Virus genome (UHGV): UHGV-0152983
Source: a virus
Direction: 5' to 3' (one strand)
DNA length: 13,750 bases
Position numbers and translations under genes: made by a program. Shown in pieces: positions 6,206 through 9,966 of the stretch (within the stretch, counting starts at the first letter, position 1; every line of letters begins with the position of its first letter). Under the pieces are notes generated by a model. It was not told where the DNA came from and did not search any database. It saw nothing but the letters and a program-made list of their open reading frames with translations.

Positions 6206-6505
6206 TTAAAATTCCATCTGGATTTGTTCAGAACGCTCGGTCTTGCACACCGGGCGTTTTTTATTGGTGAGTCCATCAAGCGCATACTTAAAAGCCCTGC
6301 TAATCGGACTGATGTCTGATGCCATTCCGAAAGCACACAAGACCGAAGCAATAAATCTCCAGTCCGTTCTGCTTATCTTCGATTCATGACAGCCAATCAT
6401 CTTTGCCAGACCGCGCTGGGTAATCGCTGACAGGTTGATGAGTAAATCTGTTTCTGCGCGATCAACGTCGCGCTGTGATAGTTTGCTGTAACTTGTTCTT
6501 TCCAT
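6206..6505 (-). CDS. cII: CII transcriptional activator, 99 aa, lambda-like C-terminus with divergent N-terminal and central region
   Basis: ORF in track; C-terminus LTNKKRPVCKTERSEQIQMEF matches my recollection of lambda CII (TNKKRPAATERSEQIQMEF); position immediately downstream of cro and nutR. Confidence 0.8.
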   Translation of the reverse strand: MERTSYSKLSQRDVDRAETDLLINLSAITQRGLAKMIGCHESKISRTDWRFIASVLCAFGMASDISPISRAFKYALDGLTNKKRPVCKTERSEQIQMEF

Positions 6506-6515
6506 TTCTTAAGAT
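6483..6515 (+). promoter_or_regulatory. Candidate PRE-like CII-activated promoter overlapping the cII start codon
   Basis: TTGC-N6-TTGT (6483-6496), then 13 nt, then TAAGAT (6510-6515); this has the same geometry as lambda PRE (TTGC-N6-TTGC, 13 nt, AAGTAT), it faces cI, and it overlaps the cII ATG (6503-6505). Confidence 0.35.
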
Positions 6516-6590
6516 TTCCAATAGTGAATAGTTAGTTGACTGGTATGCGTGGAAACGCATATGGCCTGAGTTGGTCAGATATCTTGGGGC

Positions 6591-6636
6591 TCGCTTTTCA
6601 GCGACGTAGGACGAATGTCCGTTGTTACAAAGAGCG
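6591..6636 (-). promoter_or_regulatory. nutR-like site (boxA plus boxB hairpin)
   Basis: Minus-strand reading: boxA-like CGCTCTTTGTAACAAC (complement of 6621-6636), then boxB-like hairpin TCGCTGAAAAGCGA (6591-6604); located just downstream of the cro stop. Confidence 0.55.
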
Positions 6637-6643
6637 GGGTTAC

Positions 6644-6844
6644 TTATGCTGTTGTTTTTTTGTTACTCGGGAAGGGTTTTACTTCTTCCGCATAAACGCT
6701 TCCATCAGCGTTTATAGTTAAAAAAATCTTTCGGCCTGCATGAATGGCCTTGTTGATCGCACTTTGATACACGCCAAGATCTTTAGCCGTCTTGGTTTGA
6801 CCAAAGCGCATTGCATAATCTTTCAGGGTTATGCGTTGTTCCAT
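6644..6844 (-). CDS. cro: Cro repressor, 66 aa
   Basis: ORF in track; [66 protein letters not shown] matches lambda Cro as I recall it. Confidence 0.95.
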
Positions 6845-6868
6845 ACAACCTCCTTAGTACATACAGTC

Positions 6869-6938
6869 ATTATCACCGCCAGAGGTAAAATAGTCAACAT
6901 CTGCGGTGTTAGATATTTATCCCCTGCGGTGATAGATT
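6869..6938. promoter_or_regulatory. OR operator region with divergent PR (towards cro) and PRM (towards cI)
   Basis: OR1 TATCACCGCCAGAGGTA 6871-6887; OR2 CAACATCTGCGGTGTTA 6895-6911; OR3 TATCCCCTGCGGTGATA 6918-6934. PR on minus strand: -35 TTGACT (complement of 6892-6897), 17-nt spacer, -10 GATAAT (complement of 6869-6874). PRM on plus strand: -35 TAGATA 6910-6915, -10 TAGATT 6933-6938; the cI ATG at 6945 gives a near-leaderless transcript as in lambda. Confidence 0.85.
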
Positions 6939-6944
6939 TAACGT

Positions 6945-7658
6945 ATGAGCGCAAAAAAGAAACCGTTAACACAAGAGCAGCTTGAGGACGCACGTCGCCT
7001 TAAAGCCATTTATGAAAAAAAGAAAAATGAACTTGGCTTATCTCAGGAATCTGTTGCAGACAAGATGGGGATGGGGCAATCAGGTGTTGGTGCTTTATTT
7101 AATGGCATCAATGCATTAAATGCATCTAACGCCGCATTGCTTGCAAAAATACTCAACGTTAGCGTTGAAGAGTTTAGCCCTTCAATCGCCAAAGAAATTT
7201 ACGAGATGTATGAAGCGGTTAGTATGCAGCCGTCACTTAGAAGTGAGTATGAGTACCCTGTTTTTTCTCACGTTCAGGCCGGTATGTTCTCTCCAGAACT
7301 TAGAGCCTTTACCAGAGGAGATGCGGAGAGATGGGTAAGCACAACCAAAAAAGCCAGTGACTCTGCATTCTGGCTTGAGGTTGAAGGCAATTCTATGACG
7401 GCTCCGGCTGGTTCTAAACCCAGCTTCCCTGATGGGATGTTAATTTTGGTTGACCCTGAACAGGCTGTTGAACCAGGTGATTTCTGCATAGCTCGACTTG
7501 GCGGTGATGAATTTACATTCAAGAAATTGATAAAAGACAGTGGACAGATATTTTTACAACCATTGAACCCACAGTTTCCGATAATTCCATGCAATGAGAG
7601 TTGTGTCGTTGTGGGAAGGGTTATCGCCAGTCAATGGCCTGAAGAGACGTTTGGGTGA
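6945..7658 (+). CDS. cI: CI repressor, 237 aa
   Basis: ORF in track; near-identical along its length to lambda CI as I recall it ([59 protein letters not shown]...[20 protein letters not shown]), including the C-terminal autocleavage domain. Confidence 0.95.
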
Positions 7659-8323: not shown

Positions 8324-9249
8324 ATCGTAATGATTATGTTTTCGCTCTCAGTGAGCGCGAGCAAATAAGTAATCTATTAAAAAATATGCCAACAAGTCAT
8401 TCTATTAGCCGAAAAAGCTTAGAAGACCGTCTGGAGAAAGTTGAGCGATTAATTTCACAAGCTGACGTTCGAGAACATGAACCTACGCATGCTGTGTTAA
8501 CTTTTAGAGGCCCAACAGTAGTTGGCACGCATGGCATTTCAGCAGTATTTGGAACAAAAGCTATATCTTGTTTTAATGATGCAATAGCTTACTTGGCAAC
8601 CTCTTTCAATGGCCCACTTCCTGCATCAGGCAAGATACCAAACATAGAAAATAATCATCTCATGATTACCGCGTCAGCCCGTGGTTCTTTCGGATTCGTA
8701 CTTGAAGAGTTTAGACCTGATGCTCCTCTTGAATTCGATGAAGAAACCCCAGTAGCAAAAGCTATTAATAAGGCCAGAAAAATATTTCAGGCAAGCTTGG
8801 ATAATGATGATGAAGAATTGTCTGATGCTATAGAAAACTTAGACTCTCGGGCCTTAGATAAAATCAGAGCATTCATTCATTATCTGCATGAAAATAAAAC
8901 AGTTTTTACACTTAAAAGCCAAGGTTTTAGCATCGTTTTTAGAGAGCCAAAACAGCTTGAAGCTGTATATCAACATCTCAGCAATGATAACATTCAGCAG
9001 GAAAAAATTATTGAGAACGTTATATTTTTGGGAACTCTTCCTAACAAGCGCCAATGTGAATTTATAGTTTTAGGTAACACTGATATCAGAACCGCTAGCA
9101 TTGACAAAGCTGTAGATGACCCAGATATTATAAACAAGCACTTAGGAAGCGTTGCAACAGCCACGTTCCTGAAAAAAACTGTTGGTAAGGGCAAGCCCAG
9201 ATACACTCTGGTTTCTCGACCTCAATGGGATATTAAATCAATCGATTAG
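8320..9249 (+). CDS. Uncharacterised protein B, 309 aa, at the rexB position
   Basis: ORF in track; ATG overlaps the stop of gene A; soluble-looking; no Walker motifs; followed by a strong terminator. No family recognised by eye. Confidence 0.65.
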   Translation: MNRNDYVFALSEREQISNLLKNMPTSHSISRKSLEDRLEKVERLISQADVREHEPTHAVLTFRGPTVVGTHGISAVFGTKAISCFNDAIAYLATSFNGPLPASGKIPNIENNHLMITASARGSFGFVLEEFRPDAPLEFDEETPVAKAINKARKIFQASLDNDDEELSDAIENLDSRALDKIRAFIHYLHENKTVFTLKSQGFSIVFREPKQLEAVYQHLSNDNIQQEKIIENVIFLGTLPNKRQCEFIVLGNTDIRTASIDKAVDDPDIINKHLGSVATATFLKKTVGKGKPRYTLVSRPQWDIKSID

Positions 9250-9263
9250 AATGAGCCCCTTCA

Positions 9264-9291
9264 GCCCGGCCTCCGCGCCGGGTTTTCTTTT
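9264..9291 (+). terminator. Rho-independent terminator ending the cI-A-B transcription unit
   Basis: CCCGGC (9265-9270) / GCCGGG (9277-9282) stem with 6-nt loop, followed by TTTTCTTTT (9283-9291). Confidence 0.8.
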
Positions 9292-9441
9292 ACCATCAGC
9301 CCGTCAAAAACACACCTAACGAATTGTATTTATTGAATAAATATAAATCACACTTATCACATTGCGCAATTCAGCTCCTACACATCCAGACTAGCTCTGC
9401 AAAACTTTAAAAAAATAAATCAATAGTAAAAACATGCACAT

Positions 9442-9504
9442 AACCATTTGCGGTAATATTTTATCTCTAGCGGTGTTGACGAAAATACCTCCGGCGGTGA
9501 TACT
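9442..9504 (+). promoter_or_regulatory. OL operators and PL promoter
   Basis: OL3-like AACCATTTGCGGTAATA 9442-9458; OL2 TATCTCTAGCGGTGTTG 9462-9478; OL1 TACCTCCGGCGGTGATA 9486-9502; PL -35 TTGACG 9476-9481, 17-nt spacer, -10 GATACT 9499-9504; closely resembles lambda PL as I recall it. Confidence 0.8.
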
Positions 9505-9549
9505 AAACACATCAGCAGGACGCTGGAAGCTAAATGGAACAGACTGGCA

Positions 9550-9596
9550 GGCTCTTTAAACAACGTCGACTCTCGACTACGTGGCTGAAAAGCCAG
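9550..9596 (+). promoter_or_regulatory. nutL-like site (boxA plus boxB hairpin)
   Basis: boxA-like GGCTCTTTAAACAAC (9550-9564) followed by boxB-like hairpin TGGCTGAAAAGCCA (9582-9595), in the PL leader upstream of N. Confidence 0.55.
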
Positions 9597-9693
9597 ATCA
9601 CCCAACCACATAAGCTGTGGGATGCAATGCCGAAGCAACCGTCTCAGGAGGAGCTTCGAGATTGCATCACCAAAGTTTATTCGGGAGGAATCT

Positions 9694-9966
9694 ATGTCCA
9701 GAAAAACAGAATTTAAAGGCACCTCAGCTTCTCGTCGTAGAGCTCGTCGCGCAAACCTGCAAAGTCAGGAGGCGATTAGCTCCGACAAGCTACACAGACC
9801 AACCCCCTCTCGAGTGGTCTTGCAATGCAAGCGCAAACCAGCAATGAGAGCAGAAGTAATAACACTGACAACGTTGACCAGAAAATATGAAGGCTCAACT
9901 TGTCTTCCAAATGTAGCTCTTTACGCGGCAGGCTACCGGAAATCCAAACAACTGACAGCAAGATGA
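9694..9966 (+). CDS. N: N-type transcription antiterminator, P22 gp24-like, 90 aa
   Basis: Internal Met of track ORF 9622..9966 with GGAGG 5 nt upstream; arginine-rich motif SASRRRARRANLQ near the N-terminus; C-terminus LPNVALYAAGYRKSKQLTAR matches my recollection of P22 gp24 (LPGVALYAAGHRKSKQITAR). Confidence 0.75.
   Translation: MSRKTEFKGTSASRRRARRANLQSQEAISSDKLHRPTPSRVVLQCKRKPAMRAEVITLTTLTRKYEGSTCLPNVALYAAGYRKSKQLTAR

Follow-up and report, generated by a model that had tools for sequence, protein, structure and literature searches.

Known modules in a new combination: the predicted immunity region of a lambdoid Escherichia coli prophage and its uncharacterised gene pair at the rexAB position

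Gene content and similarity map of the region

We analysed a stretch of 13,750 nucleotides (nt) from the virus genome UHGV-0152983 (hereafter the window), centred on the segment 6206-9966, which carries genes for a lambda-type CI repressor and Cro, for a CII-type activator and for an N-type antiterminator together with the corresponding operators and nut sites. Compared with the standard map of lambda, the window reads in the opposite direction. Encoded on the minus strand are a primase-helicase (3279-5159), a replication initiator (5267-6043), a small open reading frame (ORF) of 47 amino acids (6040-6183), cII (6206-6505) and cro (6644-6844), and the plus strand holds cI (6945-7658), a pair of cargo genes (7745-8323 and 8320-9249), N (9694-9966) and then a gene with an Nmad5 domain. 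Pfam matches in the window were to Phage_CII, N_peptide, HTH_36, Toprim_2/AAA_25/DnaB_C, DUF6932 and Nmad5. Judged from these genes and their relatives, this is very probably the immunity and early-control region of a lambdoid E. coli prophage whose modules have been exchanged at short conserved linkers. The mosaic is genuine but ordinary, namely a new combination of modules each of which is already known, and the cargo pair is its only uncharacterised piece.

An initial annotation, made from the letters alone, had described the region as a mosaic, and the breakpoint map against lambda, P22, HK97 and phage 21 bears this out. BLAST similarity to lambda within the segment is restricted to three blocks, which are 6210-6271 (92%, the 3′ end of cII), 6630-7658 (91.5%, cro-OR-cI) and 9265-9523 (76%, terminator to PL). 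HK97 matches 6210-7654 at 90.7% and mEp234 matches 6250-7654 at 92.5%. The Shiga toxin (Stx) 2 phage 1717 matches two separate blocks, 6210-6637 (93%) and 9510-10017 (97.8%), and Stx2_EH2085 and F403 match 3275-6649 at 95.6-99%. Sliding identity in windows of 50 nt separated three zones: 6200-6250 tracks lambda-imm21 and EH2085, 6250-6649 tracks HK97, mEp234, 1717, H-19B and EH2085, and the sequence from 6650 onward tracks lambda, HK97 and mEp234.

The lambda-type immunity cassette

The cro gene (6644-6844, minus strand) encodes a protein identical to lambda Cro in 66 of 66 residues, with seven synonymous and no non-synonymous nucleotide differences. The repressor gene cI (6945-7658, plus strand; 237 amino acids) is a rare and distinct lambda-type allele, its product being identical to lambda CI at 224 of 237 positions (94.5%, 13 substitutions) and 95.4% identical to that of HK97. 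Compared with lambda DNA, the part encoding the N-terminal domain is 95% identical and that encoding the C-terminal domain 85%, so that the divergence is concentrated in the latter. Four substitutions fall in the N-terminal domain (T3A, Y61S, K71N and R83K), where one stretch of 15 residues is unchanged; T3A, which HK97 has as well, is in the N-terminal arm that contacts DNA. None of the four is known to contact a base.

Between cro and cI we identified OR1 (6871-6887), OR2 (6895-6911) and OR3 (6918-6934) with zero, four and one mismatches to lambda, respectively, and a promoter scan placed PR (TTGACT-17-GATAAT) within this OR region (6871-6934). On the other side of the cassette OL3 (9442-9458), OL2 (9462-9478) and OL1 (9486-9502), all read on the plus strand, show two, one and two mismatches. 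They are accompanied by PL (TTGACG-17-GATACT, plus strand), which is followed by the conserved transcript start CATCAGCAGGACGC, the whole OL/PL block spanning 9442-9523. All six operators keep lambda spacing and consensus halves and overlap PR/PRM and PL. By these sequence features the cro/cI/operator set belongs to the lambda immunity group, and CI would be expected to confer lambda immunity. The earlier description of cI, cro, OR and OL/PL as nearly identical to lambda was correct as to type, and for Cro to the last residue, but overstated the likeness of the DNA as a whole, which is 91.5% over cro-OR-cI, 85% in the cI C-terminal domain and 76% over OL/PL.

One could argue instead that the repressor, Cro and operators form a separate specificity that derives from that of lambda and is heteroimmune to it. 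The allele is discrete and rare, since among 5,426 complete E. coli genomes eight carry this cro-cI allele at 100% identity and 609 carry one at 90-95%, with none at 95-99%; the 13 substitutions in CI, the four changes in OR2 and the two each in OL1 and OL3 could be read in the same direction. Against this, the Cro protein does not differ from that of lambda, all changes in its DNA being synonymous, just four of the CI substitutions lie in the N-terminal domain with its unchanged 15-residue stretch, OR1 is identical to that of lambda and consensus halves are kept in every operator. We therefore consider a separate immunity specificity unlikely, and lambda-type immunity the better reading of the cassette.

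The closest parallels to this arrangement are the wild lambdoid phages HK97, mEp234 and HK106 with lambda-type cI and cro (immunity regions EF120460 and EF120461). They share the order of cII with a 21/HK97-type body, nutR with spacer hairpin, lambda-type cro, OR and lambda-type cI, followed on the other side by a non-rex cargo, timm, OL/PL, nutL and a non-lambda N, and HK97 and mEp234 are collinear with the window over 6210/6250-7654 at 91-92%. They differ in that their CI is 99% lambda-like (94.5% in the window), N is of the 127-amino-acid H-19B type with GACAA boxB loops, the CII tail reads ...TEDFKQIDMQF, the cargo is gp48/gp49 or hicAB, and replication is by a P22-like gene 18 plus DnaB. 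Wild phages with lambda immunity are said to have been described by Degnan et al. in 2007.

An uncharacterised gene pair in the position of rexA-rexB

The cargo segment (7659-9264) lies between the cI stop codon and an intrinsic terminator at 9263-9284 (plus strand). This terminator, found by a terminator scan and aligned with those of lambda, HK97, mEp234 and 1717, is the equivalent of lambda timm, which follows rexB, and it forms the left end of the cargo slot; the same scan detected no terminator after cI. The segment had no nucleotide match in 50,697 phage records and no BLAST similarity to lambda.

The first gene (7745-8323, plus strand) encodes a DUF6932 protein of 192 amino acids from TTG 7745, or of 181 amino acids from ATG 7778. 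It is predicted to be a Pol-beta-type nucleotidyltransferase, with an invariant GS...DxD...D motif and a structure model at a predicted local distance difference test (pLDDT) score of 88, and it shows a weak match (2e-10) to the PADLOC defence candidate model PDC-M63A. DUF6932 was mentioned by no paper in our literature search. The second gene (8320-9249, plus strand) starts in overlap with the DUF6932 stop codon and encodes a partner of 309 amino acids without a Pfam or PADLOC match. Its model (pLDDT 85) comprises a helical N-terminus, an alpha/beta middle part and a C-terminal barrel resembling the oligonucleotide/oligosaccharide-binding fold, and only this barrel matches known folds. Homologues of the partner form 31 clusters, nearly all from Enterobacterales. 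A search of BFVD returned three uncharacterised phage proteins, one of them a DUF6575 protein, with E values of 1e-9 to 7e-11 but template modelling scores of about 0.4. Profile searches against the PDB yielded only spurious matches for both cargo proteins (designer PPR repeats, uL23 and BAG).

Adjacency of the two genes is conserved, with an overlap or a gap of at most 3 nt between them. In prophages of Escherichia, Salmonella, Pectobacterium, Serratia and Proteus the pair was found directly downstream of five unrelated repressor types. Further copies come from Burkholderia and from Bremerella (Planctomycetota), and the partner there is homologous over its full length (hhalign E values of 1e-52 to 1e-59). 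Among the complete E. coli genomes eight of 5,426 carry the pair, and these are the same eight that carry the identical cro-cI allele, a strict linkage.

Lambda rexA-rexB has the same position and orientation and likewise consists of two genes between the cI stop codon and timm. The cargo pair differs from it in having no sequence or fold similarity; neither protein has a Pfam or PADLOC Rex match, and position alone is shared. By analogy with rexA-rexB the cargo would be expressed in the lysogen, probably co-transcribed with cI from PRM. Its position and mobility suggest an exclusion or addiction module that is expressed in lysogens. That the pair represents a so far undescribed anti-phage or exclusion system, expressed by lysogens and residing beside prophage repressors, is a tentative proposal to which we give rather less than even weight. 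An uncharacterised and widely mobile two-gene cargo in the place where lambda keeps its Rex exclusion system is one lead from this region.

The junction within cII

The cII gene (6206-6505, minus strand; 99 amino acids; Pfam Phage_CII, PF05269, 6e-34) combines a body of the phage-21/HK97 type with a C-terminal tail of the lambda/21 type. Its Pfam domain, its place downstream of nutR and the oop-type antisense terminator that overlaps its 3′ end identify it as a CII activator gene. The protein is 89.9% identical to CII of lambda-imm21, 86.7% to that of 1717 and mEp234 and 41% to that of lambda, and the DNA similarity to lambda is limited to about the last 20 codons. The recombination junction falls near 6248-6275 (codons ~78-86). 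A TTGC-N6-TTGT repeat (6483-6496, plus strand) in the 5′ part of the gene, placed like the CII box of lambda PRE, is a candidate PRE -35 element; it sits in a block that is collinear with HK97, 1717 and phage 21.

Opposite the 3′ end of cII we found an oop-like antisense RNA (6196-6262, plus strand), whose terminator consists of a stem at 6230-6260 and a run of T. Its 5′ end is approximate and presumed, with a TATAAT at 6183-6188. The RNA folds at -21.8 kcal/mol (z = -2.8) and is 92% identical to lambda 38591-38649. The conserved patch at the cII junction is the oop terminator with the 3′ part of oop. Lambda-imm21 regains its identity to lambda at lambda coordinate 38591, exactly where the similarity of the window to lambda starts. 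On this comparison the junction is the classical right boundary of imm21, located at the oop terminator overlap, and is a recurrent crossover point that sister prophages have used as well. Between cII and the initiator lies the small ORF of 47 amino acids (6040-6183, minus strand; phrog_1913, 5e-22), the positional equivalent of P22 orf48 and HK97 gp53.

Sister prophages and contigs show what has been exchanged here. From about 6210-6250 to at least 10017 the prophages of CE10, E10 and AR_0017 and the IMG/VR loci L027, L051 and L075 share 98.5-99.9% identity with the window, and four kinds of CII tail occur among such relatives. The window, CE10 and the IMG/VR loci L020, L029 and L091 have VCK-TERSEQIQMEF; E10 has the lambda tail unchanged, AR_0017 that of HK97, and L027 and L075 one resembling that of H-19B. 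In CE10, E10 and AR_0017 each tail is paired with a different initiator gene, and similarity resumes at 5651. This pairing and the restart at 5651 indicate that the exchanged unit comprises the cII tail, oop, the small ORF, the initiator DNA-binding domain and the candidate iterons, and that the C-terminal domain of the initiator is left with the primase-helicase. For lambda it has been reported that the last 16 residues of CII are an FtsH degradation signal, that CII1-87 still activates PRE and that oop overlaps the cII end by 52 nt (PMC5869508), and an exchange inside cII would be tolerable for these reasons.

The initial annotation had taken cII to be chimeric with a junction inside the gene. 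Chimera and junction are real, as the 41% overall identity to lambda and the lambda-like last ~20 codons attest, but they are not peculiar to this phage. A recent and unique recombination yielding a novel hybrid activator would account for the confinement of lambda identity to the last ~20 codons. The same hybrid, including its Val-Cys-Lys insertion, is however shared by lambda-imm21 (89.9%), Stx2a_F403 (96%), CE10, W224N and three viral contigs. Its junction falls on the boundary of imm21 at lambda 38591, and the same cII body occurs with other tails in HK97, H-19B and 1717. A recent and unique origin is accordingly very improbable. Phage 21, as represented by lambda-imm21, is the nearest likeness on this side, with the 89.9% identical cII and the same tail, DGLT.KKRPVCKTERSEQIQMEF. 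It differs in its own cI, cro and N, in a hexaloop boxB and in having lambda O/P downstream of cII.

N and the nut sites

N (9694-9966, plus strand; 273 nt, 90 amino acids) begins with an ATG behind GGGAGG. An ORF of 114 amino acids from 9622 is an in-frame upstream extension of it, and RefSeq calls the 273-nt ORF in the sister prophages W224N, CE10, AR_0017 and E10. The protein matches Pfam N_peptide (PF25694, the HK97/H-19B/P22 lineage) at 1e-31 over residues 1-90 and is 99.1% identical to the N of 1717, 61% to that of H-19B/HK97 and 41.6% to P22 gp24. At the DNA level 1717 matches the segment 9510-10017, which comprises the PL start, nutL and N, at 97.8%, and Nil2, 2851, YYZ-2008 and the PA phages match it at 97.6%; 63 phage records cover it by at least 80%. 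The alignment revealed an H-19B-like N-terminus (shared MxRxTxFKG), a central part ~37 residues shorter than that of H-19B N, owing to a deletion, and a C-terminus, CLPNVALYAAGYRKSKQLTAR, that is common to H-19B and HK97 and present in diverged form in P22. The arginine-rich motif, SRRRARRANLQSQ, is nearest to that of lambda (TRRRERRAEKQAQ; 8 of 13 residues identical), with H-19B having RSRRRERLKAKALA. For H-19B N the arginine-rich motif has been described, and its C-terminal part is an RNA-polymerase-binding domain (PMC3526286).

By sequence, N is thus the Nil2/1717 Stx-phage allele of the HK97/H-19B/P22 N family. Its initial designation as P22 gp24-like does not hold, since the likeness to P22 is confined to the C-terminal ~20 residues. 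The P22 class is marked by a GACAA pentaloop and the motif GNAKTRRHERRRKLAIER, as opposed to the GAAA loops and the motif SASRRRARRANLQSQ found here. P22 was ruled out as donor, its DNA matching over only 60 nt at the N 3′ end at 75%. The Stx phages of the 1717 group (1717, Nil2, 2851, YYZ-2008 and the PA series), with N-region DNA 97.6-97.8% identical to the window and, in 1717, a cII body 86.7% identical, differ from it in a Sakai/VT2-type immunity cassette, with cI 67% identical in the C-terminal domain only, in a P22-like replication module and in an HK97-type cII tail.

Two sites with the boxA-spacer-boxB pattern were found in the window, on the expected strands and in the expected positions (3′ of cro and 5′ of N), and the pattern arose in none of 200 shuffles. 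nutR (6591-6636, minus strand) consists of boxA CGCTCTTTGTAACAA (6622-6636), a spacer hairpin GGACATTCGTCC (6609-6620) and boxB TCGCTGAAAAGCGA (6591-6604). nutL (9551-9595, plus strand) consists of boxA GCTCTTTAAACAA (9551-9563), a spacer hairpin GTCGACTCTCGAC (9565-9577) and boxB TGGCTGAAAAGCCA (9582-9595). Both boxB hairpins, whose letters the initial annotation had quoted exactly, have a stem of 5 bp and a GAAA loop and lie 15-30 nt downstream of a boxA. Both sites are identical to those of 1717 and follow the H-19B-type layout of boxA, spacer hairpin and boxB, and nutR differs from that of HK97, H-19B and F403 in boxA and by the loop C. The boxB loop is a GAAA tetraloop in the window, as compared to GAAAA in lambda and GACAA in P22, HK97 and H-19B; the C of GACAA is extruded from the loop, in contact with the P22 N peptide (PMC12550061).

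To place these sites in context we used a sample of 80 IMG/VR loci that encode this N allele at 97-100% identity. The boxB of nutL occurs in 79 of the 80 and that of nutR in 74, the exceptions being mostly truncated contigs. The DNA between the two boxB sites of these 74 loci, about 2,977 nt in the window, falls into 26 clusters, only one of which (six loci) matches the cassette of the window. Since 26 kinds of inter-nut DNA occur under a constant N and nut pair, N and both nut sites form a fixed frame and the immunity cassette is the unit that is swapped. In F403, HK97, mEp234 and H-19B, in turn, a 127-amino-acid H-19B-type N goes with GACAA at both nut sites, even though their DNA from nutR to cII is 82-100% identical to the window in most 50-nt windows, and 86-98% over 6500-6649. 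It follows that loop and boxA co-vary with the N allele and its arginine-rich motif, and that the pair is cognate. On this evidence N and the nut sites have been inherited together, as in 1717, and N is expected to act on these sites.

The question of cognate matching that the initial annotation had raised is resolved by this co-variation and by the identity of both nut sites to those of 1717. The alternative would be mismatched leftovers of recombination, a P22-type N facing an unselected boxB with antitermination impaired or its specificity relaxed. It could point to a boxB equal to neither that of lambda (GAAAA) nor that of P22 (GACAA) and to the C-terminus that N shares with P22 gp24. We find it hardly credible, because nutL and N form one contiguous block that is 97.8% identical to 1717 with nutR identical to 1717 nutR, because exactly these boxB sequences accompany this N in 79 and 74 of 80 independent contigs, and because GACAA stands at both sites in phages whose N is of the H-19B type, although their nutR DNA is otherwise 86-98% identical to the window in 50-nt windows.

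As a smaller possibility, the GAAA-tetraloop boxB and this N may constitute a separate N-boxB specificity class. An open-access description of such a class was not found in the literature on Stx-phage nut sites that we searched. A natural N/boxB pair with a plain GNRA tetraloop is of interest as a lead, the studied pairs of lambda and P22 having pentaloops with one extruded base.

In the predicted minimum-energy folds of the nut RNAs (9548-9602, plus strand, and 6570-6640, minus strand) the boxB hairpin is replaced by pairing of boxA to the 3′ half of boxB, which encloses the spacer hairpin. These alternative folds are only modestly better than shuffles (z = -2.2 and -1.0, respectively), and the pairing is reminiscent of the 'alternative NUT RNA structures' described in H-19B. 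The N/NUT system of H-19B, which has been studied experimentally, shares the nut scaffold and the predicted alternative pairing and differs in its loop (GACAA versus GAAA).

The replication module

The initial annotation had proposed that replication uses a helix-turn-helix initiator and a toprim/DnaB-like primase-helicase rather than lambda O/P. Pfam confirmed this for two genes located at 3279-6043, outside the segment to which that annotation referred. The initiator (5267-6043, minus strand; 258 amino acids) has an N-terminal HTH_36 domain (Pfam, 5e-14), a Gly/Ala linker encoded by iterons and a C-terminal domain common to other O-like initiators. PHROGs splits the protein into residues 1-138 and 94-258, and a module breakpoint lies inside the gene at 5651, where homology stops or restarts in sister prophages and in Sf101. 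At the amino acid level the initiator is 99.6% identical to the 'replication protein O' of Stx2a_F403. Inside the gene we found three direct repeats of 21 nt, GGGCAGCTCCTGCCCCACCCC (5689-5754; 100/100/90% identity, spacing 24 and 21 nt), which by analogy with their placement in lambda ori are candidate origin iterons. The primase-helicase (3279-5159, minus strand; 626 amino acids) has Toprim_2 and AAA_25/DnaB_C domains, belongs to phrog_239 (DNA primase/helicase) and is 98-99% identical in nucleotide sequence to Sf101, CE10, E10, AR_0017 and F403. Neither Phage_rep_O nor the lambda P loader was found by Pfam, and BLAST of the window against lambda gave no DNA similarity to O or P.

The pairing of an HTH_36 protein with a primase-type protein has been published as 'Eru5', one of the types of replication region in Stx phages, for which Stx2a_F403 serves as the reference (PMC8951638). 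By domain content and identity the module found here is of this Eru5 type, a unit directly on the cro/cII side of the immunity region ('upstream of cI' in the wording of that paper). Over 3275-6649 Stx2a_F403 (Eru5, also Min27 and phi24B) is 97-99% identical to the window, and it differs in its cI and cro and in an H-19B-type N.

The primase-helicase of F403 comprises 968 amino acids, compared to 626 in the window, owing to an in-frame insertion of ~1 kb (F403 4393-5418) opposite window 4048-4049. The insertion may be an intein or homing element, and the window carries the uninterrupted allele. A homing-endonuclease-like gene with HNH and AP2 domains (2585-3196, minus strand) separates the primase-helicase gene from ninB. 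W224N and AR_0017 have it too, whereas CE10, E10 and Sf101 lack it at this place.

A modular model and its occurrence in finished genomes

Taken as modules, the region consists of four parts. A replication and lysogeny-establishment block of the Eru5 type (a) holds the primase-helicase, the initiator with its candidate iterons, the oop-like RNA and the cII tail. An antitermination frame of the Nil2/1717 type (b) follows, with nutR and the cII body on one side and nutL and N on the other. Inside this frame sits the lambda-type immunity cassette (c), from PL/OL through cI to OR/PR-cro, and inside the cassette, between the cI stop codon and the timm-like terminator, the two-gene cargo (d) in place of rexA-rexB. 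One boundary of the cassette falls at CATCAGCAGGACGC, the PL transcript start, where homology to lambda ends (9523) and homology to 1717 begins (9510). The other falls at nutR boxA just after the cro stop codon, where homology to lambda ends (6630) and that to F403/EH2085 ends (6649). Both boundary sequences are conserved among lambdoid phages.

Partners in specificity each lie within one module and for that reason survive the shuffling. The six operators stay with Cro and CI, the two boxB hairpins with N, the candidate PRE box with the cII body, the antisense oop RNA with the cII tail, the candidate iterons with the initiator DNA-binding domain, and the primase-helicase with the initiator C-terminal domain. 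The region is in this respect a clean example of lambdoid modular evolution, and since each module has been described before, little changes in the general picture. Its value lies in a set of sister prophages whose immunity regions agree at 99.8% and which thereby pinpoint the exchange sites, namely the PL transcript start, nutR boxA, the oop-terminator overlap in cII and a point just past the iterons in the initiator gene, with protein-site partners kept together in every exchange.

A single known phage as parent of the whole region was ruled out, none of the 50,697 deposited phage records covering more than 45% of 6040-10010 or more than 54% of the whole window. Two finished E. coli chromosomes, in turn, carry uncharacterised prophages that match it: that of W224N is collinear over positions 1-10809 (99.96%) and that of CE10 over 3247-10809 (99.87%). 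Collinearity with one known phage, which the initial annotation had named as the observation that would speak against a mosaic, is thus absent from phage records but present, at 99.9-100%, in these two prophages. The combination of modules is natural but rare and uncharacterised. That the mosaic is an assembly artefact joining reads of several co-resident lambdoid prophages deserves next to no credence, for several such prophages per E. coli genome are indeed common (matching places with a median of 1 and up to 9), but the finished W224N and CE10 chromosomes are collinear with the window and the same junctions recur in six independent viral contigs.

Module boundaries, collinearity, co-occurrence and co-variation were all read from sequence comparison, and some points weigh against our interpretation of the region. 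The exact combination of modules is found in no deposited phage genome, so that its viability can be judged only from the intact ORFs and the eight identical prophage copies. The functional statements, that CI would confer lambda immunity and that N would act on these nut sites, are what we infer from homology. The cI allele is ~8-10% diverged in nucleotide sequence from the common lambda/HK97 allele and OR2 carries its four changes, and strict homoimmunity with lambda is for these reasons not guaranteed. That the architecture is already documented draws on the GenBank records of mEp234, HK106 and HK97.

Flanking genes and additional observations

A search of 5900-10100 against Rfam at a permissive threshold returned only a chance match to rliD (E = 0.66), with oop and nut recovered by no family. 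Directly 3′ of N lies the gene for a protein with nucleotide-modification-associated domain 5 (Nmad5; 9968-10651, plus strand), and recurrent module boundaries were seen at 10017, by the start of this gene, and at 10809. To the right of 10809 (10810-13680) the window departs from the W224N/CE10 type, which has genes for an ATP-binding protein and a DUF669 recombination protein, and tracks Sf101, mEp234 and HK97 with their Erf-type recombination module at 96-98%. This switch of affinity indicates that the window is itself recombinant with respect to its closest finished relatives. At the opposite end an antirepressor-like protein (548-1234, minus strand), labelled P22AR C-terminal domain protein in the W224N record, gave weak matches to the PADLOC candidate PDC-S05 (E about 1e-5).

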